Shown: in pieces, positions 1,440 through 61,425 of the stretch
How the letters are laid out: the number at the start of each line of letters is the position of its first letter
Position numbering within the stretch: the first letter of the stretch is position 1
From: an uncultured Dehalococcoidales bacterium
GTDB lineage: Bacteria > Chloroflexota > Dehalococcoidia > GIF9 > UBA5629
Assembly (NCBI GenBank): GCA_964413085.1
Contig: CAYPRI010000001.1
Span: forward strand, 719 to 64,718
Direction: 5' to 3'
DNA: 64,000 nucleotides
Position numbers and translations under genes: made by a program
Notes under the pieces: generated by a model
What the model was told of the DNA's origin: nothing
Database searches by the model: none
The model's input: only the letters and a program-made list of their open reading frames with translations

Positions 1440-1725
1440 TTTAATAAGGTAAAGGCGAAGAACAGGACTAGTAAGCCTTTAAGCGAAGCTAAAGAGAGTC
1501 AGGCCAGGTGAAAGCTGACGTCGGCGCAAAGGCTGAATGGACCGGGGAGCTGCAAACCGAAAGGCTGAATCAGCACAAGTAGGCTTTGACGCAGAGGGTA
1601 GCGTTACTAAAACCCAGGGTATCGCTATAATACGTAGTGGTACCTGATGAGATGGTCGAAAGACCAATAAGGGTGGCACCGCGAAAATTGAGCCTCTCGC
1701 CCCTTAGGCGAGAGGCTTTATATTT
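1440..1725 (+). promoter_or_regulatory. T-box leader (tRNA-sensing transcription-attenuation riboswitch), probably Trp-specific.
   Basis: Conserved T-box sequence AAUAAGGGUGGCACCGCG at about 1666-1684. Terminator hairpin AGCCUCUCGCC-CCUUA-GGCGAGAGGCU at 1691-1716 followed by UUUAUAUUUU. The 5' arm of the terminator can alternatively pair with the T-box sequence to form the antiterminator. AGAGAG motif at about 1484. The downstream gene is trpB2. Confidence 0.75.
1691..1725 (+). terminator. Intrinsic terminator of the T-box leader (11-bp stem, 5-nt loop, U-tract).
   Basis: Perfect inverted repeat gcctctcgcc/ggcgagaggc followed by tttatatttt. Confidence 0.75.
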
Positions 1726-1830: not shown

Positions 1831-3204
1831 ATGAAAGGTAAAGAGACCAAAATTATTTTAACCGAAAAGGAAATGCCAACAACTTGGTACAACGTCCTGC
1901 CGGACCTGCCTAAACCTCTGCCGCCATTGCTACATCCGGGGACAGGCCAGCCTACTCCATTGCCTCCTCCACTCTTCTCCAAAGGTATGCAGGAGCAGGA
2001 GTTCAGCACAGAGCATGATATCGAAATTCCGGATGAGGTGCTGGATATCTACAAACTGTGGAGGCCAACACCAGTAATCCGTGCCTATCGGCTGGAGAAG
2101 GCACTCGATACACCAGCTAAAATCTTCTACAAATATGAAGGCGTCAGCCCAGCCGGCAGCCACAAGCTGAACACGGCTGTGGCCCAGGCTTATTACGCCA
2201 GGCAAGATGGAATTAAGCGCTTTGCCACCGAGACCGGTGCCGGCCAGTGGGGCAGCGCCCTATCAATGGGCTGCGCTTTCTTCGGCTTAGAGTGCAAAGT
2301 CTATATGGTCAGGGTGAGCTACAACCAGAAGCCGTATCGTCGCATTCTGATGGAGACCTGGGGAGCCAAGTGTGTGGCCAGTCCTAGCCAGGATACCCAA
2401 ATAGGGCGCAAAATTCTAGAGGAAGACCCCAACTCACCTGGTAGTCTTGGTATCGCCATCAGCGAGGCAATTGAGGATGCTGGTCCCCGCGATGACACTT
2501 ATTATTCCATAGGCAGCGTCATCAACTCTGTTCTGCTCCATCAAACGATTATCGGCGAAGAAGCTAAAAAGCAGATGGAGAAGGCCGGCCTCTATCCCGA
2601 TATCATCGTAGGCTGTATCGGTGGCGGCAGCAACTTTGCGGGTATGTACCTGCCATTCGTCAAGGATAAAATAACGGGTAAAAAGCCAAACTTGCGCATC
2701 ATCAACGTAGAACCGCAAGCCTGTCCCAGCGTGACTAAAGGTCCTTATACATGGGATTACGGTGATGTAGCTGGAATGGCGCCAATTGCTAAAATGTATA
2801 CGCTAGGCCACACCTTCATACCACCAGGAATCCATGCTGGCGGTCTACGTTACCACGGCATGGCACCGATAATCTGCCATCTTCACAAGCTGGGATTTGT
2901 CGAAGCCAAGGCAGTACCACAGGTGGCAACCTTCCAGGCCGGCGTGCAGTTCGCTAGAACCGAGGGAATCATTCCCGCGCCGGAGCCGAACCACGGCATT
3001 AGAGTAGCCATAGACGAGGCACTGGCCTGCAAGAAGTCCGGAGAATCCAAGACCATACTCATCGCACTCAGCGGGCATGGACACTTCGACCTGGCCGCAT
3101 ACGATGAGTTTCTTAGCGGTAAGCTACAGGACTACGACTATCCTGAGGAGAAGGTGAAAGAGGCTTTAACCCATTTGCCTAAGGTAGAGTACGTAGAGAA
3201 ATAA
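1831..3204 (+). CDS. trpB: Tryptophan synthase beta chain, TrpB2 (long) type.
   Basis: 457 aa. Motifs [60 protein letters not shown] at 1818-1826. Confidence 0.9.
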
Positions 3205-48138: not shown

Positions 48139-49710
48139 TCATATAGCCGGTGCCTCAATGGTTACTATTGTGCCCTTGTCAGGCCCGGAGTTCACCTTCA
48201 ATTTGCCACCTATTAACTGGACCCGTTCTTGCATTCCAGCTAAACCCAACCTACCCTGTTTGACCAAGTCGCCAGTTGTCTCTGGAATACAAAATCCCTT
48301 TCCGTCGTCTCTAATAGTTATTCTAATCAACTCTTCACTGAATTCGACAGCAACTTCGGCATTAGTCGCCCTGGAATGCCTTAAGGTATTCATTAAGGAC
48401 TCTTGAGCGATACGGAAAAGGCATAGTTCTACCTCGGGAGAAAATCGTCGACTAACACCTCGCATTGTTACCTCAATATTAATCTTTGAGCGCCTGCTGA
48501 GATCTGAAGCAAGCCATTCCAGTGCCGGTAACAAGCCAAGCCGGTCTAATGTTGGGGGCCGCAGATCCTGGCTCAGTCGTCTTACGTTTGCCATAATGTC
48601 ATCAGCTTGTTTACGTAAATTATCAAGCAGGCGCCTCTTGTCAAACGGCAGATCGCCACTAACTGAAATAATGTCATCCAGCTGCCGAGCCAGTACAACT
48701 AACGACTGAATCGTCTCATCATGAAGCTCGCGTGCAATACGTTTGCGTTCTTCTTCCTGAGCCAATGTAATTTGGCCAAGGTAAAAACGTAAGCTTTCCT
48801 GCATATGCTTCTCTTCCGTAACATCTCTGGCAATATGTTGAAATCCGACAGCTTTGCCGTTAACCTCCACTACATCTGTGGTCAATTTTAGAATCGCTTC
48901 AACCCTGTCCTTAGTAATTAACCTCTGCTCATAAGGTTGCGAGACAGCTCTTTTGTTTAGAAGTCGGTTTCGTATTTCCTTCGCCAGGTGTAAGCTATCC
49001 TCGGACAGAAAGGATTTAACGTTCATTCGGCATAATTCTTCCACTTCATAGCCTGTAAGTTTGGAGGCAGCAATATTGGCGGAACTGATATTTCCATCCA
49101 TATCATGCACCCATATCGCGTCATGGGCATTCTGAAATAAAGTCCGATACCTCTTTTCAGATAGACGCAATTTCGATACGTTTTTCCGCTCTACATCGTA
49201 CAGAATTGCATTCTCAATCGCTATGCCAATTTGATTCCCCAGGTTACATAGCAGCTCGATATCATCTTGGTTAAATCGGCGCCGATTATGCGTGGCAACA
49301 CAAAGAGCCCCTGTTACCTTTCGGTTAGCTTTCAGCGGTACTAAAACCAGGGACTGTAATCCTTCGTTTTCAAATGCCATTTTGGGCAGGTTAACGTTAT
49401 TCGAGCTGTCTTCAACAATTCCGGAGAGTCCAGCTTCAGTAACCGGTTGTCTTATATCCTCCAACTTAATATCTCCAACACTGTCCACAAATGATTTCGT
49501 AACTCCTCTGTGGGCACGAAGAGCAAGGTGGCCAATCTCTTGACTAGGAAGGAAAATTAGAGCAGCATCGACATCCATTATCTCTGAGACATTGTCAACA
49601 CTGCTGCTTAGAATGTGTTTTAACTCAAGGGACTGTGAGATGGTGCTTGAGATACGTCCCAAGCTTTCCAGTTGAAGAAAATGACTGCTTTCCCGTTTAG
49701 ATAGTCTCAA
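48139..49710 (-). CDS. Sensor histidine kinase (GAF-PAS-GAF sensor, HisKA_3/NarL-type transmitter).
   Basis: H-box ARELHDETIQSL followed by HATPase_c. Confidence 0.8.
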   Translation of the reverse strand: MRLSKRESSHFLQLESLGRISSTISQSLELKHILSSSVDNVSEIMDVDAALIFLPSQEIGHLALRAHRGVTKSFVDSVGDIKLEDIRQPVTEAGLSGIVEDSSNNVNLPKMAFENEGLQSLVLVPLKANRKVTGALCVATHNRRRFNQDDIELLCNLGNQIGIAIENAILYDVERKNVSKLRLSEKRYRTLFQNAHDAIWVHDMDGNISSANIAASKLTGYEVEELCRMNVKSFLSEDSLHLAKEIRNRLLNKRAVSQPYEQRLITKDRVEAILKLTTDVVEVNGKAVGFQHIARDVTEEKHMQESLRFYLGQITLAQEEERKRIARELHDETIQSLVVLARQLDDIISVSGDLPFDKRRLLDNLRKQADDIMANVRRLSQDLRPPTLDRLGLLPALEWLASDLSRRSKINIEVTMRGVSRRFSPEVELCLFRIAQESLMNTLRHSRATNAEVAVEFSEELIRITIRDDGKGFCIPETTGDLVKQGRLGLAGMQERVQLIGGKLKVNSGPDKGTIVTIEAPAI

Positions 49711-49792
49711 AATATCTTTATGAATATATTTTTTCGCGACACGGTTTTATACATTCCACGAAGCTACATTCTGATGCTGTGTGGTAAGATTC

Positions 49793-50458
49793 TCAAGACA
49801 TATTATCGAGAGTGACCCAACCTTCTTTTAGAGCATGTACCACAGCCTCGGTCCTAGAGCTTACCCTGAGTTTATTAAATATGTTCGCCAGGTGTCCCTG
49901 GATAGTGCGCACGCTTAAACAAAGACCGTCGGCAATGTCTTTATTGCTCAAACCCTTGGTTACCATTCTTAATACTTCCATTTCTCGTTCAGTAAGCAGG
50001 TCTAATGACTTCTTATCGCGCTGCTTGCCAGAAACACCAGCAAATCGATTTAAAACCTTGCGAGCTACCGAAGGATGAAGCACCGACTCTCCGGCATGAA
50101 CTGCTCTAATAGCATCGACTATCTCTAGGCCACGGACACTCTTCAATAGGTATCCTGCAGCACCTGCTTCCAACAGGCCGAATATAAATTGGTCATCATC
50201 ATAGGCACTCAATACTAGTACCGCTACGGCAGGACATTGGGCCTTTATACGCCGGGTGGCTTCAATACCATCCAATCGAGGCATGGCCACATCCACCAGC
50301 ACTACATCCGGCTTTAAATCACAGGAAAGTTTCACTGCTTCCTCACCATCGCCAGCCTCCGCCACTACCTCTAAATCAGGTTCTTGTTCTAATATTCGAC
50401 GTGTTCCCTCACGTACGAATGCGTGATCGTCTGCTATCAATATCCTGATGTTGTCCAT
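49793..50458 (-). CDS. NarL/LuxR-family response regulator.
   Basis: REC domain (ILIADDH) and a C-terminal LuxR HTH. Start at MDNIRIL (50458) rather than the longer track ORF at 50554. Confidence 0.8.
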   Translation of the reverse strand: MDNIRILIADDHAFVREGTRRILEQEPDLEVVAEAGDGEEAVKLSCDLKPDVVLVDVAMPRLDGIEATRRIKAQCPAVAVLVLSAYDDDQFIFGLLEAGAAGYLLKSVRGLEIVDAIRAVHAGESVLHPSVARKVLNRFAGVSGKQRDKKSLDLLTEREMEVLRMVTKGLSNKDIADGLCLSVRTIQGHLANIFNKLRVSSRTEAVVHALKEGWVTLDNMS

Positions 50459-50811
50459 ACAGTCGATTCTACCGAGGCTCATTATAGCAGAATTGCCCAT
50501 AAAAGCAGTAAAAATTGGATTCATGGTAGGCATAATTACGTGCTCCAGCTTCACTCGCTAAGCTTTAACTACAAAATAAAATAAGCATTGTAACGGACGT
50601 TAATAGCCTCTTACGTATGTTACACTTACGCTGGGGGAAAATAAGGCAGTTCCACACATAGGGTGAATCCACCTGAGTGTGAGTCATCCTTTTATTTGCT
50701 CAATGGCAGGAAACAGGATTCTAAGCCTAAAAACCAGAGAAAAATAGACCTTTTGTTCATTTTATATAAAATACTAAAAGCAGTATAATTTGCGGCGAAA
50801 GTAGGTGCAGG

Positions 50812-51390
50812 ATGGAAATAAAGGTACACGGCAGCAACGACTTCATCCAAGAAATCTCTTCCATGCCCGGCGGCGAAAAAATAAACCTTTGTATCCAATG
50901 CGGTACCTGTTCGGCATCGTGTCCTAATGCCAATAAAATGGACTACACTCCCCGCGCGTTAATTGCCATGGCACGAGCTGGCATGAGAGACGAGGTCCTA
51001 TCCAGCAACTCCATGTGGCTATGCTTATCCTGTTACATGTGCACCGTGCGCTGCCCCAGAGGCATCGTGCCGACATATATTATGCATGCCCTAGAAAATT
51101 TGGCCATGCGTCATCACGCAACCAGCCCAAAAACACGCACTCCCACACTATATAAGGTGTTCAGCAATACTGTATACAATGTGGGGCATATACCGCGATT
51201 CGGCTGCATGGGCCGGTTTTATCTCAGGGTAAATCCATTTGGCGCATTGAAAAACATCCCAGTGGCACTATCACTGTTCAAGCACGGGCGTATGCCTATT
51301 AATATGCGTAGGAAATTAAAGCCCGAGGCACTAAGTCAGTTTAAAGCTATTTTGGACAAAGCCACGATGCTGGAGGAACATCCCAAATAG
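50812..51390 (+). CDS. hdrC: Heterodisulfide reductase subunit C-like (2x[4Fe-4S]).
   Basis: CIQCGTCSASCP and CLSCYMCTVRCP. Confidence 0.8.
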   Translation: MEIKVHGSNDFIQEISSMPGGEKINLCIQCGTCSASCPNANKMDYTPRALIAMARAGMRDEVLSSNSMWLCLSCYMCTVRCPRGIVPTYIMHALENLAMRHHATSPKTRTPTLYKVFSNTVYNVGHIPRFGCMGRFYLRVNPFGALKNIPVALSLFKHGRMPINMRRKLKPEALSQFKAILDKATMLEEHPK

Positions 51391-51464: not shown

Positions 51465-52343
51465 ATGAAATATTATAGTTATTTCCCAGGCTGCTGTATG
51501 TATGAAGATAGTCAGGCATATGACCTGTCGGCGCGAGCCGTTTCTAAGCTCCTAGACATCGAGCTTATCGAGCTTGAGGACTGGAATTGCTGCGGTTCTA
51601 CCCCTTATACAGTTGTTGACGAACTGTCTGCTTTTTGTTGCTGTGCCCGAAACTTGGCATTAGCTGAAAAACGAGGGCTTGATTTGGTGGCAGCCTGTAG
51701 CGATTGCTATCTCATACTCAGCCGGACAAATCAACACTTTAAGGAATATCCCGAGGTAAAGAAAAAACTAAGCGAGTCTCTGGCTGCAGGTGGGCTGGAG
51801 TATAACGGCACAATTAAAGTGCGACATATACTAGATGTCTTTGCCAACGATGTGAGCAGTGAAGATATCAAAGCCACGGTCAAAGTTGACCTTGGCAGCC
51901 TGAAAGTTGCTCCCTATTATGGCTGTCAGGCAGTGAGGCCGACACCGAACTTCGATGACCCCGAATATCCTGAGTCAATGGACAGGATGGTGGTAAGCAT
52001 CGGAGCCCAGGTTGTGCCGTATCCGCTCAAAACCCGCTGCTGTGGCGGTTCCCTAATTTTATCTGAACAAGATGTTGCTTTAGGACTTATATATAAACTT
52101 CTAGATAACGCTATAAGCAACGGAGCAGATTGCATTGTTACCGTGTGCCCATTTTGTCACCTAAATTTAGATGCCTACCAGAGTGTGGTGAACAAAAAGT
52201 ACAAAACTAACTTCAATATACCGATTCTATTCTTTACACAACTGATGGGAATGGCTTTTGGCATTGAGAGTAAAGCGCTGGGTTTACGAGAAAATATTGT
52301 TCCTATAGGTAAAACATTAGCGAGATACATAACCCAACAATAA
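51465..52343 (+). CDS. hdrB: Heterodisulfide reductase subunit B-like (two CCG domains).
   Basis: CCG motifs (WNCCGS, TRCCGGS). Confidence 0.8.
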
Positions 52344-52353
52344 GGAGGAGCGA

Positions 52354-54315
52354 ATGGAACCAAAAATAGGTGTTTATATATGTCACTGCGGTGCCAATAT
52401 CGCTGCCACGGTCAACGTCGAGCAGGTAACCGAGTTTGCTAAAGGGCTGCCTTCTGTAGCTGTTGCCCGGGACTACAAGTTTGTTTGCTCAGATCCCGGC
52501 CAAGAACTTATAAAGAAAGATATCAAAGAACTGGGCATTGACCGCGTTGTGGTGGCCTCATGCTCGCCTCGATTGCATGAGCAAACCTTCAGGCGAACTC
52601 TAGTCAGTGCCGGCTTAAATCCTTATCTATTCGAGATGGCAAATATACGTGAACATTGCTCGTGGGTACATGAGGATCAAGGCAAAGCTACTGACAAAGC
52701 TAAGGCACTTGTAAGCGCTGCAGTACGACGCGTTTTCTACCACCTACCGTTGGAAACCAAAGAGGTTCCATTTAATCCTAACACACTCGTTGTGGGTGGC
52801 GGTATTGCCGGCATACAGGCGGCACTTGAAATCGCAGACTCAGGTCACAAAGTCTATCTGGTAGAGAGGGAGCCATCAATCGGCGGCCACATGGCCCAAT
52901 TGGATAAAACCTTTCCAACATTAGATTGTTCCGCCTGAATACTGACACCGAAGATGGCCTCGGTGAGGTCACACGAAAACATCGAGATGATGACTTATAG
53001 CGAAGTCATCGGTGTTTCGGGGTATGTAGGCAACTTCAAGGTTAAAATCAGGAAAAAACCGCGCTTTGTGGATGCAGCTAAGTGTACCGGTTGCGGCACC
53101 TGCCAAGATAAATGTCCCATCAAAACGGACAGCGAATTTGATTTTGGCGTCGGTAAAAGGAAGGCAATCTACACACCTTTCCCCCAGGCAGTGCCAAACG
53201 TACCCGTCATAGACAAAGAACGATGCACCTATTTCCTTAAGGGCAAATGCCGTGCCTGCGAGAAATTGTGTGAGGCTAAAGCAATAGATTTCGAGCAGAC
53301 AGAAAAAATGGTAGATTTGGATGTAGGTTCCATTATAGTAGCCACCGGTTTCGATTCCTTTGACCCGTCTCCTATGTCACAATTCGGATATGGTAGATAT
53401 GATAATGTGATTACGGGCTTTCAGTTCGAGAGAATGAGCAGCGCTTCAGGGCCAACCAGCGGCAAAATACTATTGAAAGATGGTTCCCAGCCACGAAGCG
53501 TAGCCATCCTGCACTGTATCGGCAGCCGCGACCTCAACTACCACGAATATTGTTCCCGAGTATGCTGCATGTACTCCCTGAAGTTCTCTCACTTGATACG
53601 AGAAAAAATTCCGGAAGCTGAAATATATCAGCTTTACATCGACCTGCGCTGCTTCGGTAAGGGATATGAGGAATTCTATAATCGTCTCCAAGAAGAAGGG
53701 GTCAACTTCATACGTGGGCGTGCAGGAGAGATTACAAATGTCGCCGAAACACCTGAAGAGCAAGGCAGACTGGTCGTGGTTTGTGAAGATACCTTAATAG
53801 GACGGCAGAGACGCCTGCCGGTGGATTTAGTAGTTCTTAGCACAGCGCTGGAGCCCAGGGCTGATGCCGCTGAAACAGCCAAGCTATTCTCAATTAGCCG
53901 TAGCCGTGACGGTTTCTTCATGGAAAAGCATCCCAAGCTTGACCCCGTTGCCACAACCACAGATGGTATTTTTGTTGCCGGCTGCAGCCAGGGACCAAAG
54001 GATATACCTGATACGGTGGCTCAGGCATCGGCAGCTGCAGCTCGCGTCATGGCTATGATAAGCAAGGGCCATGTGGAAATTGAGGCAGCAACAGCGGTAA
54101 TCGATGAAGAGCTCTGCTCCGGATGCAAGACATGTATTTCACTTTGTCCTTACACGGCCATATCCTTTGATGAAGAAAAGAAGATATCTTCTATCAATGA
54201 GGCCCTGTGTAAGGGTTGTGGAACCTGTGCTGCAGCCTGCCCAAGCGGAGCAATTACCAGCCGACATTTTACCGTCGAACAAATCATGGCAGAGCTAGAA
54301 GGAGTGATGGTATGA
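52354..54315 (+). CDS. hdrA: Heterodisulfide reductase subunit A-like FAD/Fe-S protein, selenocysteine-containing; UGA at 52936-52938 read as Sec.
   Basis: Track ORFs 52354-52938 and 52954-54315 are in the same frame and together align end-to-end with the 670-aa Cys paralog at 56081-58093. The UGA aligns with Cys in the paralog (TLDCSA[U/C]ILTPKM). Confidence 0.8.
52946..52965 (+). promoter_or_regulatory. Candidate bacterial SECIS hairpin for hdrA (CACCGAAG-AUGG-CCUCGGUG).
   Basis: Starts 8 nt after the UGA. 8-bp stem with one mismatch, extendable by UGA/UCA outer pairs. Absent from the Cys paralog at the equivalent position. Confidence 0.5.
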
Positions 54316-54719
54316 GCTACGAGCCCAAAATAATAGGATTCCTATGCAACTGGTGTTCATATGCCGCAGCCGATCTGGCGGGTACTTCCAGGAAAAAATA
54401 CGCGCCTAACGTACGAGTAATTCGTGTCATGTGCAGCGGCCGGGTGGAGCCTACGTTCATCCTCAAGGCCTTTCAGTTGGGGGCTGATGGAGTTCTGGTC
54501 TGTGGCTGACATCCCGGTGAGTGCCATTACCTGGAAGGTAATGTAAAAGCAGCCCGGAGAATTCCTTTACTGAAAAAAATGCTCTCACAGTTCGGCATAG
54601 AGGAAGAGCGTCTCAAACTGGACTGGGTCTCTGCCTCAGAAGGTGAACGCTTTGCTTCTATTATTAATGATATGACTGAACAAATGAGAAAGCTCGGACC
54701 TTTCAACCAAAATAGCTGA
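54312..54719 (+). CDS. mvhD: MvhD/VhuD-like hydrogenase delta subunit ([2Fe-2S]), selenocysteine-containing; UGA at 54507-54509 read as Sec.
   Basis: ATG 54312 overlaps the hdrA stop codon (ATGA). The reading frame continues through the UGA to a stop at 54717-54719. It aligns over its whole length with the Cys paralog at 58090-58518 (LVCG[U]HPGECHY vs LILG[C]HPGDCHY). Confidence 0.75.
54525..54543 (+). promoter_or_regulatory. Candidate bacterial SECIS hairpin for mvhD (CAUUACC-UGGAA-GGUAAUG).
   Basis: Perfect 7-bp stem with a 5-nt loop containing GG, 15 nt downstream of the UGA. The Cys paralog encodes the same peptide (CHYVEGNY) with synonymous codons that cannot form the hairpin. Confidence 0.55.
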
Positions 54720-54932: not shown

Positions 54933-56081
54933 ATGGAAGTATTCACCCCTCTTAAAGAAACCACAGAAATCCTATTAGGCAACGGTGGTAATCCACTTGA
55001 ATCGTGTTATCAGTGTGGTATATGTACAGGAGTCTGCCCTTGGAACCGGTTGGTAAGTTTCCCGGTACGTAAGTTGATTCATAAAAGTCAACTCGGGGTA
55101 GTCGACTTTGAGAACGAAGAGGTCTGGCAATGCGTGGGCTGTAACGCCTGTGTCGACCGATGTCCTCGTGGAGTGGAAATACCTCATATCATGCGATCTA
55201 TCCGCCGCGTTATCATGGAACTGGGTGCCGGCATCGTGCCGCACTCGCTGAGGGTAACGGAAAAGAACATCTCTGCCGTTGGTAATCCGCTAGGTGAACC
55301 ACCGGAAAGACGCATGGACTGGGCAAAAGACCTCGGAGTGAAAACATTCACAAAGGGAACAGAGTTACTATACTTCCCCTGCTGCTACCAGACTTACGAT
55401 CCTCCCACTAAAAAAACTGCTGTCGCTACTGTAAATATCCTGAAAAAGGCAAATGTGGACTTCGGCATTCCGGATAATAACGTGGTCTGCTGCGGAGAGA
55501 GCATACGAAAAGCAGGTTCCGAAAGCCTTTTTCAACGTCTGGCCAGAACCAACATCGATATCTTTTCTGAACTCGGCGTTAAAAAAATACTGGTAACCTC
55601 ACCCCACTGTTATCACACCTTCAAAGATGAATATCCCGAACTCGGAGCCAATTACGAGGTGATACATCTATCCCAATATATAGCTGAACTTATAAAAGAT
55701 GGCAGGCTAAAACCAACCAAGGAATTCAAACAGAAAGTAACCTATCACGATTCCTGTTGTCTGGGGCGTTACCAGGGGATCTACGATGAACACAGACAGA
55801 TATTAAACAGCATTCCCGGTCTCGAGTTTGTTGAGATGCCAGACAACCGTGAATATTCGCTCTGTTGTGGTGGGTGCGCCGGCAGACTATGGATGGAAAC
55901 AAAGAAGGGAGAACGGCTGTCCGAGCTCAGACTTGAGCAGGTACTTGATGTAGGAGCAAATACACTGGCCGTAAGCTGCCCTTATTGTATGGCCAATTTC
56001 AACGATGGCGTGCTGTCGATGGGTAAGACTGAGGATATAGAGGTCAAGGATATTTCAGAACTTGTTTCGGAGGCACTATAA
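54933..56081 (+). CDS. HdrD/GlcF-like Fe-S oxidoreductase (fused HdrC plus HdrB-type domains).
   Basis: N-terminal 2x[4Fe-4S] (CYQCGICTGVCP, CVGCNACVDRCP) and two CCG domains (CCGES, CCGGC). Confidence 0.75.
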   Translation: MEVFTPLKETTEILLGNGGNPLESCYQCGICTGVCPWNRLVSFPVRKLIHKSQLGVVDFENEEVWQCVGCNACVDRCPRGVEIPHIMRSIRRVIMELGAGIVPHSLRVTEKNISAVGNPLGEPPERRMDWAKDLGVKTFTKGTELLYFPCCYQTYDPPTKKTAVATVNILKKANVDFGIPDNNVVCCGESIRKAGSESLFQRLARTNIDIFSELGVKKILVTSPHCYHTFKDEYPELGANYEVIHLSQYIAELIKDGRLKPTKEFKQKVTYHDSCCLGRYQGIYDEHRQILNSIPGLEFVEMPDNREYSLCCGGCAGRLWMETKKGERLSELRLEQVLDVGANTLAVSCPYCMANFNDGVLSMGKTEDIEVKDISELVSEAL

Positions 56082-58093
56082 TGGCACAAAAAAAGGCTGC
56101 TAAAAAGGCAACACAAAAAGTAGTGCTTAAGGATACGGAGCCCAAAATAGGTGTCTATGTCTGTCACTGCGGGTCCAATATCGCTGGCACCGTTGATGTC
56201 CCGCAAGTAGTAGAGTTTGTTAAAGGGCTGCCAGCGGTAGTGGTTGCCCGTGAATATAAATTTATGTGCTCAGACCCGGGACAGAGCATGATTAAAGACG
56301 ATATCAAGAATTTAAAGCTTAACCGAGTTGTAGTAGCTTCTTGTTCTCCACTACTGCACGAACCTACGTTTCGCCGCGCTGTCCAGGAAGCTGGCATTAA
56401 TCCTTACCTGTTCGAGATGGCAAACATCAGAGAGCACTGTGCTTGGACCACAGAGGACCATGGAGAGGCCACAGAAAAAGCTAAAGCCCTGGTAAGTGCT
56501 GCCGTAAAGCGAGTCTATTATCATCAGCCGCTTGAGACAAGAGAAGTACCGGTTAACGCCAATACCTTAATCGTCGGTGGTGGTATCGCCGGTATTCAGG
56601 CGGCTTTAGAGATTGCTGATGCGGGGCACAAAGTCTACCTCGTTGAACGGGAGCCAAGCATCGGCGGGCACATGATTCAATTCGACAAAACCTTCCCCAC
56701 CTTAGACTGCTCGGCCTGCATTCTCACACCTAAAATGACCTCGGCAGGATCACACCCTAACATCGAATTGATGACCTACAGTGAAGTCGAAGAAATCTCC
56801 GGTTTTATCGGCAACTTCAAAGCCAGGATTCGAAAGAAAGCACGCTTTGTAGACGAGTCTAAATGCAACGGATGTGGCATGTGCATCGAGAAATGCCCAT
56901 GGAAAGCAGATAGCGAGTTTGACCTTGGCTTAAGCCAGCGTAAAGCCATTTACACCCCATTCGCACAAGCAGTACCTAATATTCCTGTCATAGACAAGGA
57001 AAGCTGCGCCTATTTCCTCAAAGGTAAATGCCGCGCTTGCGAAAAGTTCTGCGAGAGAGAAGCTATCGATTTCGAGCAGCAAGATAAAGTTGTTGAAGTG
57101 GATGTGGGTAATATAATTCTCACCACAGGCTATGACCCGTTCGACCCGACTCCGATGGTAAAGTACGGCTATGGTAAATTCCCAAATGTTGTTACCGGGC
57201 TCGAATTCGAGAGAATCTGTAACTCGGTTGGACCGACGGGCGGCAAAATTGTCCTCAAAGACGGTTCCGAGCCGAAGAGCATCGCTATAATACATTGCGT
57301 CGGTAGCCGTGATGAAAATTACCACGAATACTGTTCTCGAGTCTGCTGCATGTATGCTCTCAAATATTCCCACCTAATTAAAGAAAAGACCAAGGCAGAT
57401 GTCTATCAGATGTACATTGATATGCGCTGCTTTGGCAAAGGTTATGAGGAATTCTATAAGAGGCTTTGTAAAGAAGGTGTTACTTTTATTAGAGGCAAAC
57501 CGGCTGAAGTCACAGACAGGGCCATAAACGACGAGGAAAAAGGGAAATTGATTGTCGTTGGCGAGGACAGCCTACTCGGAAATGTTATCCGCGTTCCGGT
57601 AGACATGGTCGTCCTCTGCATAGGTCTGGAAGCTCGTGCTGACGCTAAACAGGTTGCTCAAAAATTTGGCATCAGCCAGGGCGCCGACGGTTTCTTTATC
57701 GAGAGACATCCTAAATTGGACCCTGTAGCAACCATGACTGAAGGAGTCTTCATCGCAGGCTGCTGTCAGGGACCAAAGGATATACCTGACACGGTGGTGC
57801 AGGCATCAGCGGCTGCAACCCGTGTCTTGGCTACAATCAACAAAGGGAACGTTGAGCTGGAAGCAGCCGTGGCTGTTATCAACGAAGAAAAATGCTCAGG
57901 CTGTCGTATTTGTAACATGCTTTGCCCTTACAATGCCATTTCGTTCATCGAAGAGGAAGAGGTTTCGCGAATCAATGAGGCATTGTGCAAAGGTTGCGGG
58001 ACATGCGTTGCCGCCTGCCCCAGTGCAGCCATAACACACAAGCATTTCACAACTGAAGAGATAATCGCAGAAATAGAGGGGGTACTGGTATGA
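56081..58093 (+). CDS. hdrA: Heterodisulfide reductase subunit A-like FAD/Fe-S protein, cysteine paralog.
   Basis: 670 aa paralogous to 52354-54315 throughout; Cys at the Sec-aligned position. Confidence 0.85.
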
Positions 58094-58518
58094 AAGACTT
58101 CGAACCTATAATCGTAGGCTTCTGTTGCAATTGGTGTTCCTACAGGGGTGCTGATTTGGCCGGCACAGCCAGGATGAAATGCTCGCCAAACGTCCGTATT
58201 ATCAGGGTAATGTGCAGTGGCCGGGTAGAACCTACATTCGTGGCCAAAGCCTTCGAACTCGGAGCCGACGGCGTCTTGATTTTGGGGTGCCATCCAGGTG
58301 ATTGCCATTACGTGGAGGGCAACTATAAGACAATGCGGCGTATGCCCCTCTTAAAGAAGATGCTACAGCAACTTGGCATCGAAGAAGAACGAGTTCGACT
58401 GGACTGGGTATCGGCTTCTGAAGGCGACAAATTCGTATCCGTAGTAGATGATATGACAGAAAAGGTCAGAGCTCTGGGACCGCTTAATAAGAACTCCAAG
58501 GAGGCGAAACATGGCTAA
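58090..58518 (+). CDS. mvhD: MvhD-like hydrogenase delta subunit, cysteine paralog.
   Basis: 142 aa; ATGA overlap with the hdrA stop, the same architecture as the Sec copy. Confidence 0.8.
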
Positions 58519-59470
58519 ACTTAAATTAGCGCTGTACTGGGCATCAAGTTGCGGCGGCTGTGAAATCGCCCAGCTTCAGATTGGCGACAAAATCCTAAAG
58601 CTGGCCGAGGTTGCAGATATCGTATTCTGGCCGGTAGCCATCGATGCCAAATACAAGGATGTCGAAGCCATGCCAGCAAAGAGTATAGACGTCTGCCTGT
58701 TCAATGGAGCTGTTAGAACATCAGAACAGGAGCATATGGCTAAGATGCTCCGTGAAAAGTCAAAGGTAATGATTGCCTATGGTGCCTGCGCCTATGGGGG
58801 AGGTATTCCTGGTCTGGGCAACATGTTCAACCGCCAGTTGATTTTCGAACGAGCTTACCTAGAAACGCAATCAACAGATAATAAAGACAAGGTCTTACCA
58901 CAAACAAAATACAAGGTTCCGGAAGGCGAACTTACTATTCCAGAATTCTATGACACGGTAAAAACTCTGGCGCAGACAGTGGACGTAGATTATACAGTCC
59001 CCGGTTGTCCTCCGGAAGCCAGAACAACCTGGCTTGCCTTAGAAGCGCTTATATCGGGCAAATTACCGCCCAAGGGCACCGTGATTACGCACAATACTAA
59101 GGCGGTATGTGATGATTGTCCGCGTAAGAGAGACGTGAAAAAGGTTAAAAAGTTCTACCGGACTTTCGAGAAGGTTCCCGAACCGGAAATATGCCTTCTG
59201 GAGCAGGGTTTCCTGTGCGCCGGCATCGCCACCCGCGGCGGCTGTGAGGCACCGTGTCCCCAGGCCAATATGCCATGCACCGGCTGTTACGGCCCTGTGG
59301 ACGGAGTAGTAGATCAGGGCGCTCACTTCCTAAGCGCAGTGGCCTCTGTGATTGATTCAAATGACCCCGAGGAAATACAGAGAATTATAGATGGTATACG
59401 AGACCCGGTAGGTACATTCTACCGCTACAGTCTGCCTGATTCGCTACTAAGGAGGGCGAGAATAAAATGA
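58511..59470 (+). CDS. mvhG: [NiFe] hydrogenase small subunit (MvhG/VhuG-type, cytoplasmic, no Tat signal).
   Basis: N-terminal [12 protein letters not shown]. Confidence 0.85.
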
Positions 59471-60927
59471 AAAGGATAACAATTGATCCCATAACCAGGC
59501 TGGAAGGCCACGGTAAGATAGAGATCTTCCTTAATGATGCCGGTGAGGTCAAAAACAGCTATTTTCAAGTCCCTGAACTGAGGGGCTTTGAAAAGTTCTC
59601 TGAAGGACGTCTGGCCGAGGATATGCCCCAGATTACACAGAGAATCTGCGGCGTATGTCCTGAAGCTCACCACATGGCATCAACTAAATGTTTAGATGAC
59701 CTTTTCCACGTTGACCCGCCAAGCCCCGCTAAAAAGCTTCGCGAGCTCTTCTATAGCACTTTCTATGTTACGGACCATACCACTCATTTCTATATACTAG
59801 CCGGCCCCGATTTCGTCATGGGGCCGGATGCTCCCGTGGCCGAGCGAAATATTCTGGGAGTAATTGCTAAAGTCGGCTTAGAATTAGGCGGAGCTGTTAT
59901 CAACACCCGAATGAAAAATCACCATATCATACATATGCTTGGTGGCAGAGCCGTGCATCCTGTATTCGGTCTGCCCGGTGGAGTCAGCAAGGGACTTAAC
60001 GAAGATGAGAGAAAAGAAGTCGAGCAGATAGCTAAGGACTCCATTGAATTTGCCAAGCTATCTTTGAAAGTATTCGACGATATCGTCCTCAAGAACAAAG
60101 CATACGTCGATATGATTGTCAGCGACGCTTTCACACACCGCACTTATTACATGGGTCTGGTTGACGATAAAAACAGGGTTAACTTCTATGACGGCAAGGT
60201 CCGAGTGGTGGACCCCGACGGAAAGGAATTTGCTAAGTACGCACCGAGAGAATACCTCAACAACGTCGCCGAACATGTTGAGCCCTGGAGCTACATGAAA
60301 TTCCCCTTCCTCAAGAATGTCGGCTGGAAAGGATTTGTCGACGGCAAAGATAGCGGCGTTTTCAGAGCAACCCCTCTATCAAGGCTCAATGCTTCCGATG
60401 GTATGGCAACACCATTAGCCCAAGAAGCTTACGAGAAGTTCTACTCTACATTGGGCGGTAAGCCGGTGCATCATACCCTGGCTACTCACTGGGCTCGCCT
60501 TGTCGAGCTCCTCTATGCTGCCGAAAGATTACTGGAGCTGAGTAAGGACCCTGAGATAACTAGCCCAAACATCCGCACTATCCCCACAGCCAAGCCGGAT
60601 GAAGGTGTAGGCATTGTTGAAGCGCCCAGAGGTACTCTAACGCATCATTACATCACCGATGAGAACGGTATTATCAAGAAAGCTAACCTAATCGTGGCTA
60701 CAGTGAACAACGCTGCAGCAGTAAATATGTCAGTCAATAAAGCAGCAAGGGCACTTATTCAACCGGGTAAGGAAATCACCGAAGGACTTCTTAATCGCAT
60801 AGAAATGGCGTGGCGACCCTATGACCTTTGCCTTGCCTGCGCTACGCATACGCTACCGGGTCAAGCACCGATGGAAGTGGTCATATACAATAGCAAGAGG
60901 GAGATAATAAAAAGGCTCAAACGCTAA
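59467..60927 (+). CDS. mvhA: [NiFe] hydrogenase large subunit (MvhA-type).
   Basis: N-terminal RICGVCPEAHH and C-terminal DLCLACATH Ni-binding motifs, both with Cys, so this is a NiFe rather than a NiFeSe enzyme. Confidence 0.85.
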   Translation: MKRITIDPITRLEGHGKIEIFLNDAGEVKNSYFQVPELRGFEKFSEGRLAEDMPQITQRICGVCPEAHHMASTKCLDDLFHVDPPSPAKKLRELFYSTFYVTDHTTHFYILAGPDFVMGPDAPVAERNILGVIAKVGLELGGAVINTRMKNHHIIHMLGGRAVHPVFGLPGGVSKGLNEDERKEVEQIAKDSIEFAKLSLKVFDDIVLKNKAYVDMIVSDAFTHRTYYMGLVDDKNRVNFYDGKVRVVDPDGKEFAKYAPREYLNNVAEHVEPWSYMKFPFLKNVGWKGFVDGKDSGVFRATPLSRLNASDGMATPLAQEAYEKFYSTLGGKPVHHTLATHWARLVELLYAAERLLELSKDPEITSPNIRTIPTAKPDEGVGIVEAPRGTLTHHYITDENGIIKKANLIVATVNNAAAVNMSVNKAARALIQPGKEITEGLLNRIEMAWRPYDLCLACATHTLPGQAPMEVVIYNSKREIIKRLKR

Positions 60928-60933
60928 TTTGCG

Positions 60934-61425
60934 TTGACAGCAATAAGGGAGTTTTCTCACAAGGCTAGTAGTACGAAAACACTGATTTTAGGACTGGGAA
61001 ACACACTTCTTTGCGATGACGGGGTTGGACTCTACGTTGCCGCTAAACTAAGAGAAAAGATAAACCAACCCAATATAACAATTATTGAGACCGGCGTTGC
61101 CGGTCTCAGTCTTTTAGACCTCCTAGTTGGATATGATAAAGCTATTATCGTTGACGCTATTCAAACTGAGGGCGGGAAAATAGGTCAGATATACAGGTTA
61201 GCCCCGGAAGCTTTCAACACAGCCGTACGAACGGCATCTGCTCATGGAATCGACTTCCCCACTGCCCTGGAGTTCGGGAAAAAACTGGGCCTTCACTTGC
61301 CTCAGCAAATAACAATCTTCGCCATTGAAGTATCCGATATAACTACTTTCCGGGAAGAATGTACACCTGAAGTGCAGAAAGCTATTCCTAAATGTGTCGA
61401 AATGATACTAAAAGAGCTAAATTAA
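60934..61425 (+). CDS. Hydrogenase maturation endopeptidase (HycI/FrhD-like).
   Basis: LILGLGNTLLCDDGVGLYVA. Confidence 0.75.
   Translation: MTAIREFSHKASSTKTLILGLGNTLLCDDGVGLYVAAKLREKINQPNITIIETGVAGLSLLDLLVGYDKAIIVDAIQTEGGKIGQIYRLAPEAFNTAVRTASAHGIDFPTALEFGKKLGLHLPQQITIFAIEVSDITTFREECTPEVQKAIPKCVEMILKELN

Follow-up and report, generated by a model that had tools for sequence, protein, structure and literature searches.

We analyzed a stretch of 64,000 nucleotides (nt), hereafter the window, from a Dehalococcoidales (Chloroflexota) bacterium. It carries hdrA, which according to family matches encodes the flavin and iron-sulfur subunit A of a heterodisulfide-reductase-type complex, and directly after it mvhD. 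Each of the two genes contains an in-frame TGA where a paralog a few kilobases downstream has a cysteine codon. We propose that these triplets are very likely codons for selenocysteine (Sec), and that a hairpin within the coding sequence, the Sec insertion sequence (SECIS), would direct their decoding. The features on which the argument is built are the following:

52354-54315 (+): hdrA, predicted Sec form, delimited by its continuous translation, with NCBIfam HdrA/HdrA2 matches on both halves and matches to PDB HdrA chains
52936-52938 (+): UGA, predicted Sec codon for residue 195 in the motif C192-S-A-U195, from the alignment to Cys and Sec homologs
52946-52965 (+): upstream competing hairpin CACCGA/UCGGUG, found in the single-sequence minimum free energy (MFE) fold only and unconserved
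52955-52971 (+): putative SECIS hairpin of hdrA, from pairing conservation and RNAalifold
54312-54719 (+): mvhD (FlpD/FrhD/VhuD family), predicted Sec form of 135 residues, from Pfam FlpD, NCBIfam VhuD and PDB MvhD
54507-54509 (+): second UGA, predicted Sec codon for residue 66 of MvhD, with Cys in the paralog and TGA kept in relatives
54525-54543 (+): putative SECIS hairpin of mvhD, from RNAalifold, folding energy, and sequence conservation
56081-58093 (+): hdrA-Cys paralog, with TGC at 56717-56719
58090-58518 (+): mvhD-Cys paralog, member of an all-Cys cluster

The two open reading frames (ORFs) at 52354-52938 (194 aa) and 52954-54315 (453 aa), which the first-pass annotation had described as two parts of hdrA, indeed share one frame. 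Continuous translation of 52354-54315 gives an HdrA of 653 residues with a single internal stop. This protein is 71% identical to the HdrA-Cys paralog over the whole length, and its homology to HdrA chains in PDB extends from residue 2 to residue 651 (E down to 1e-241). The TGA was also correctly placed in the context TLDCSA-TGA-ILTPKM, opposite the Cys of the paralog. In solved HdrA proteins, UGA195 aligns with residue 197; 5odc_A has Cys there, and 9sfi_A has an X that stands for Sec. The Sec197 of Methanococcus maripaludis HdrA is bonded to a Cys and is located between the flavin adenine dinucleotide (FAD) and cluster A3 (PMC13518236, 2026 super-assembly paper). Given this alignment, the window would therefore encode the same C-x-x-U motif (C192, U195).

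The Sec-type codon is stable among close relatives. In 80 genome loci, 18 genes have TGA at the aligned site, and 63 have TGC or TGT. Among the best 120 database proteins, 110 have Cys at the aligned site and the other 10 fall outside the motif pattern. The TGA is present in each of the 13 closest orthologs (78-91% identity), where the frame stays open past it to the same C-terminus (...QI[ML]xxxEGV..), with no other stop. These nearest relatives were drawn from a collection with one genome per species, and are metagenome-assembled genomes (MAGs) of Dehalococcoidales/Dehalococcoidia (Chloroflexota).

The sequence that follows the TGA is under an unusual constraint. We computed a profile of codon entropy over the 14 orthologous genes (the one in the window and the 13 above). 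Of all windows of nine codons along the gene, 52948-52974 has the lowest entropy (0.046, vs a gene mean of 1.18), and the eleven that rank behind it all share codons with it. Such a footprint at synonymous sites indicates a constraint at the RNA level directly 3' of the TGA. Inside this region lies the hairpin UGGCCUC-GGU-GAGGUCA (52955-52971), with a stem of 7 bp (52955-52961/52965-52971) and a GGU loop at 52962-52964. Its energy is -8.6 kcal/mol in context and -8.0 kcal/mol alone (17 nt, z = -3.1).

Metagenome contigs were scanned with the pattern FPT.DC..-TGA-I.TP.M, in which the TGA is preselected. From the 120 contigs retrieved and the genome loci, we obtained 133 unique sequences downstream of a TGA in hdrA; alignment A1 comprises 38 distinct sequences of the SECIS type of the window. 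In A1, the hairpin 52955-52971 is paired in 100% of the cells (38/38 sequences), and three of its pairs changed on both sides (C-G to G-C, U-A to C-G, and C-G to A-U). None of 500 shuffles and no slid register reached an equal degree of pairing, and the RNAalifold consensus is exactly this hairpin.

Other lineages with a Sec-type hdrA have a hairpin at the same place. All but two of 128 unique TGA-hdrA sequences (126) have a stem of at least 6 bp, with the loop starting 19-26 nt past the UGA in 116 cases, and the loops are GGU, GUG, GUU, GGA, GUC or GGC, i.e., G-[G/U]-N. Across lineages, this position is taken by four or more unrelated stem sequences, among them UGGUGUCC-GU[N]-GGACGCCA, GGAUGAC-GGA-GUCAUCC, and UGCUGC-GGC-GCAGCA. 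The occurrence of unrelated stems at one place provides independent support for the register of 52955-52971. For comparison, only 12 of 67 Cys forms of hdrA have a comparable hairpin, at scattered positions, and their mean hairpin energy is -7.1 kcal/mol, vs -11.3 kcal/mol for the Sec forms.

The published model of the bacterial SECIS calls for a loop of 3-9 nt, an upper stem of 4-16 bp, a distance of 16-37 nt between UGA and loop, and an energy of at most -7.5 kcal/mol (PMC13188914, Fig. 2). It also has a G in the two leading loop positions, mostly as G[G|U] (PMC13188914). The hairpin 52955-52971 agrees with every one of these constraints: a loop of 3 nt that reads GGU, a 7-bp stem, a location in the coding region after the UGA, a spacing of 23 nt between UGA and loop (52939-52961), and energies of -8.0 to -8.6 kcal/mol. 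Its triloop lies at the lower end of the size range, and the element has no sequence resemblance to that of Escherichia coli fdhF. When the whole window was scanned for a TGA with open frames on both sides and a hairpin compatible with the model, the only sites found within real genes were those of hdrA and mvhD. Four further combinations of TGA and hairpin were discarded as they are all antisense to genes with confident family matches.

The start of mvhD overlaps the stop of hdrA (ATGA). The gene matches Pfam FlpD and NCBIfam VhuD up to its TGA, and MvhD chains in PDB over residues 1-132 (E = 1e-50). The TGA lies in VLVCG-U-HPGECHY, where the paralog has Cys, and it is kept in 15 related loci. 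It is followed by the hairpin CAUUACCU-GGA-AGGUAAUG (54525-54543), whose GGA loop (54533-54535) is 23 nt past the UGA and whose energy alone is -7.1 kcal/mol (z = -3.7). The RNAalifold consensus of mvhD falls in the same alignment columns (20-26/30-36) as the hdrA element. The 18 nt CAUUACCUGGAAGGUAAU in this hairpin are identical in 13 of 14 close relatives, and the remaining one (L007) has a single change, at the U-A pair that closes the loop. Folding energy fails to separate the Cys and Sec forms of mvhD (means of -10.4 and -10.5 kcal/mol, respectively), which leaves conservation and the shared register as the argument for this gene. We interpret UGA66 as a putative second Sec codon, with its hairpin in the register of hdrA.

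The mvhD-Cys paralog has a stem-loop of its own at 58288-58321 (+), which starts at the TGC and is very stable (-17.2 kcal/mol, z = -3.3, 0/200 shuffles as good). We considered whether it could be a fossil SECIS and rejected this, since the average stability of the local fold is practically equal in the Cys and Sec forms of mvhD. The fold probably arises from a UGCC/GGCA complementarity imposed by the peptide motif CH...GN.

A third gene of this type was found beyond the window. Contig L201 is 99.98% identical to the window over 14.5 kb and thus represents the same genome, and it runs past the end of the window. About 2.2 kb past the right end it carries a peroxiredoxin gene (L201:16305-17001, -) with the sequence FYPGDFTFV*PTE, where the TGA occupies the position of the peroxidatic Cys. 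Peroxiredoxin is an established selenoprotein family (PMC1794560). Gene callers divide this gene into several small ORFs, its frame appears to shift further downstream, and a possible hairpin with a CGG loop begins about 16 nt past the TGA. The presence of three Sec-type genes within 15 kb argues that the organism decodes Sec.

Taking these data together, we consider it highly likely that UGA195 of hdrA is a Sec codon read through the hairpin 52955-52971. When a ribosome reaches this UGA, the mRNA 17-35 nt downstream would be folded into the 7-bp hairpin with its GGU triloop. Following the established bacterial mechanism, this SECIS would be bound by the elongation factor SelB carrying Sec-tRNA(Sec). 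Sec would then be inserted instead of termination, yielding the 653-residue HdrA with a C192-x-x-U195 redox pair beside the bifurcating FAD, and UGA66 of mvhD would be decoded likewise through the hairpin in the same register. That SelB binds, that selenium is incorporated, and that this genome has selABCD is inferred.

Several observations weigh against this interpretation. The compensatory changes within the SECIS type of the window come from only two to three sequences (L095, L100, and L183). In the single sequence, the MFE fold is the competing hairpin 52946-52965, which accounts for about 92% of the ensemble. Rfam has no SECIS-like match at the gathering threshold, and at E <= 10 its matches on the hdrA and mvhD sites are only chance ones to small nucleolar RNA and tRNA-like structure (TLS) families. 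The genes selA, selB, selD and that of tRNA-Sec are absent from the 64-kb window (ARAGORN finds no tRNA; NCBIfam was searched on 43 ORFs) and from the fetched loci of related Dehalococcoidales MAGs. The only tRNA-Sec that ARAGORN detected in any locus belongs to L033, an unrelated Bacillota MAG. Searches with tblastn using approximate sequences of SelA, SelB, and SelD of E. coli gave matches in Bacillota and Geobacteraceae loci only. Hence, Sec decoding by this genome is suggested by the three Sec-type genes only. The Sec trait and tRNA-Sec are documented in Chloroflexi, the latter reportedly with an 8/4 acceptor/T-stem form, and there are dehydrogenases annotated with Sec in Dehalococcoidales. 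In a separate observation, selA, selB or selD lie within a few kilobases upstream of hdrA homologs with Cys195 in L033, L034, and L040 (Bacillota/Syntrophomonadaceae) and in L070, L073, and L078 (Geobacteraceae).

The alternative that fares best keeps the TGA as a Sec codon and assigns the SECIS function to 52946-52965, as the first-pass annotation had done, or lets both hairpins, which exclude each other, act as a switch. The complementarity between CACCGA (52946-51) and UCGGUG (52960-65) exists; RNAfold gives it as the minimum for the single sequence, where it dominates the ensemble with pair probabilities of 0.81-0.94. The annotation was also right that the paralog lacks a comparable fold (-2.9 vs -10.5 kcal/mol by RNAfold over 40 nt from the TGA). 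It had asked for a fold more stable than shuffled controls: a stable one is found (-10.5 kcal/mol), but not beyond chance (z = -1.6, 13/200 shuffles as good), and single-sequence folds of 40-55 nt around the site have z values of -0.4 to -1.6. The two hairpins have practically the same energy (-8.5 kcal/mol for 52946-51/52960-65 and -8.6 kcal/mol for 52955-52971), and single-sequence folding therefore cannot decide between them.

The comparison between sequences argues clearly for the downstream hairpin. In A1, the pairs of 52946-52965 are formed in 88.6% of cases, a value that 133 of 500 shuffles equal. Its core pairs 52948-49/52962-63 are invariant in the 38 sequences, but these bases double as loop and stem of 52955-52971, and two other pairs fail to form in part of the set, 52947-52964 in 15 and 52950-52961 in 7 of the 38. 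L095 and L100 destroy the upstream hairpin, yet keep the downstream one by compensatory changes. The loop of 52946-52965 starts 13-15 nt past the UGA, outside the range of 16-37 nt of the model, and SECIS types B, C, and D have no counterpart of it. Further details of the earlier structure did not hold. The proposed G53-C58 pair is separated from the stem by an A-C mismatch and makes the fold less stable (-8.0 vs -8.5 kcal/mol). Of the "flanking UGA/UCA pairs" (52943-45/52969-71), position 52944 varies freely among relatives, and all four Thr codons are in use among orthologs at 52945-47. Hence, the earlier proposal of a Sec codon at UGA195, with a bacterial-type SECIS missing in the paralog, stands, and the hairpin had been mis-assigned. 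Conservation supports 52955-52971 as the SECIS of hdrA; it overlaps the hairpin proposed before and begins about nine bases downstream of it. A function of the upstream hairpin, alone or within a switch, seems quite improbable.

It is still less probable that the TGA is a true stop, which would make hdrA a split gene, with a 194-aa product and a 453-aa protein restarted at the ATG at 52954, or a pseudogene. These are precisely the two ORFs that public gene callers report, and an in-frame ATG does lie 15 nt past the TGA. Yet the FAD-binding domain would then be severed just at the site of a catalytic Cys. The 15 nt between TGA and ATG encode the conserved peptide ILTPK, for which orthologs use four Thr, two Leu, and two Lys codons. 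Synonymous variation with a fixed peptide shows that these codons are translated in frame, which argues against termination and re-initiation. The ATG at 52954 has no Shine-Dalgarno-like sequence, whereas AAGGAGGA precedes the real start at 52354. The TGA and the hairpin are kept over 128 unique sequences, the same pattern occurs again in mvhD, and a footprint at synonymous sites is not a trait of pseudogenes. Least probable of all is a selenium-independent readthrough of the UGA, in which a suppressor tRNA, a near-cognate tRNA or a reassigned code would place Cys, Trp or Gly at residue 195: it would fit the failure to find Sec machinery in the available sequence, but residue 195 corresponds to Sec in a solved homolog, a conserved hairpin with a G-[G/U]-N loop at constant distance, as found here, is what marks SelB-dependent recoding, and TGA is the normal stop of 12 of the 42 long ORFs of the window, and the terminal stop of both hdrA and mvhD, which shows that the code is not reassigned and that recoding depends on local context.

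The families to which we assign a Sec codon are known. HdrA is the fourth and FrhD/MvhD the third most numerous bacterial selenoprotein family (Zhang et al. 2006, PMC1794560). The two are typically adjacent and accompanied by Cys paralogs (PMC1794560; PMC13188914). The HdrA of the window belongs over its full length to the same family as those of M. maripaludis (9sfi_A, Sec197; PMC13518236) and Methanothermococcus thermolithotrophicus (5odc_A, Cys197), with E values of 1e-211 to 1e-241. It shares with them the Sec/Cys position and the motif D-C-x-x-[U/C]-I-L, and in both cases mvhD/vhuD follows hdrA. The archaeal Sec genes differ in having the SECIS in the 3' untranslated region (PMC13188914), whereas here a bacterial-type hairpin lies inside the coding sequence after the UGA. 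The host here is not a methanogen but a Chloroflexota bacterium.

A likeness is also found with Syntrophobacter fumaroxidans, Moorella thermoacetica, Carboxydothermus hydrogenoformans, and other Deltaproteobacteria and Clostridia (PMC1794560), which have the same two families in one operon, Cys paralogs, and a SECIS in the coding region. Unlike these, the bacterium studied here is a member of Dehalococcoidales, its five-gene glpC-hdrA-mvhD-mvhG-mvhA cluster is all-Cys, and the predicted Sec residues are in a separate hdrCBA-mvhD cluster without hydrogenase. Hence, Sec-hdrA and Sec-mvhD of Dehalococcoidales belong to known families, and a specific description of them in this lineage seems to be lacking. 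In a number of contigs we observed two TGA-hdrA copies about 2-3.7 kb apart (L036, L042, L082, L088, L094, L106, L114, L121, L131, L152, L153, and L159). Two of these are loci of Chloroflexota MAGs, L036 from Anaerolineae and L042 from Chloroflexia. The two-copy contigs recall the tandem hdrA-hdrA arrangement reported for Deltaproteobacteria.

The remaining genes of the two clusters, and the spacer between them, are:

50812-51390 (+): hdrC, with Pfam Fer4/CCG domains and NCBIfam HdrC, upstream member of the predicted Sec-containing hdrCBA-mvhD cluster
51465-52343 (+): hdrB, with Pfam Fer4/CCG domains and NCBIfam HdrB, upstream member of the same cluster
between mvhD-Sec and the fused HdrCB/GlpC-like gene: AT-rich spacer of 213 nt
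54933-56081 (+): fused HdrCB/GlpC-like gene, first of the all-Cys cluster (54933-61425)
58511-59470 (+): mvhG, all-Cys cluster
59467-60927 (+): mvhA, all-Cys cluster
60934-61425 (+): hydrogenase maturation protease, end of the all-Cys cluster

Divergent from the hdrCBA-mvhD cluster, the stretch 48139-50554 (-) encodes a sensor histidine kinase of the GAF/PAS type together with a LuxR-type response regulator. One may imagine that the two clusters are a pair of selenium-responsive isoenzymes, like Vhu and Vhc of Methanococcus, controlled by this two-component system, with the upstream hairpin 52946-52965 tuning Sec insertion. We regard this scenario, drawn by analogy, as unlikely. The two clusters do not encode the same set of subunits. 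This favors distinct complexes over simple isoforms, and the lack of conservation of 52946-52965 speaks against a tuning role.

Identical or near-identical copies of the locus (99.98-100%) are present in several metagenome assemblies, and their gene calls illustrate the consequences for annotation. Both L201 and L202 have hdrA annotated in two pieces, 194 and 453 aa long. For mvhD, L201 likewise lists two ORFs (65 and 46 aa), and L202 lists the 65-aa ORF alone. Among the best 120 full-length database homologs of HdrA, where the 110 with the motif are all Cys, identity is at most 76% and we found no annotated Sec ortholog. Since callers split the genes at the TGA and the database homologs are only Cys forms, the Sec orthologs are effectively unannotated. 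The Hdr/Mvh selenoproteins of Dehalococcoidales and other Chloroflexota would thus be systematically missed or fragmented in metabolic reconstructions of subsurface bacteria. Their presence would imply a need for selenium in a flavin-based electron-bifurcating module of these uncultured organisms. The SECIS type defined here, a GG[U/A] triloop on a stem of 7-8 bp, with exactly 23 nt between UGA and loop, could serve to find more selenoprotein genes in the lineage. The understanding of Sec decoding and of Hdr is left unchanged; the main value of these results is in annotation, and they will not surprise the specialist.

The other genes of the window have housekeeping functions (ileS, yidC, ssb, ppsA, dnaG, rpoD, ffh, sbcC, porCAB, lysA, holB, dnaB, mfd, and others). 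A T-box leader was identified at 1449-1707 (+) (Rfam RF00230, 97 bits), upstream of a gene for a TrpB-like pyridoxal-phosphate enzyme at 1831-3204 (+).

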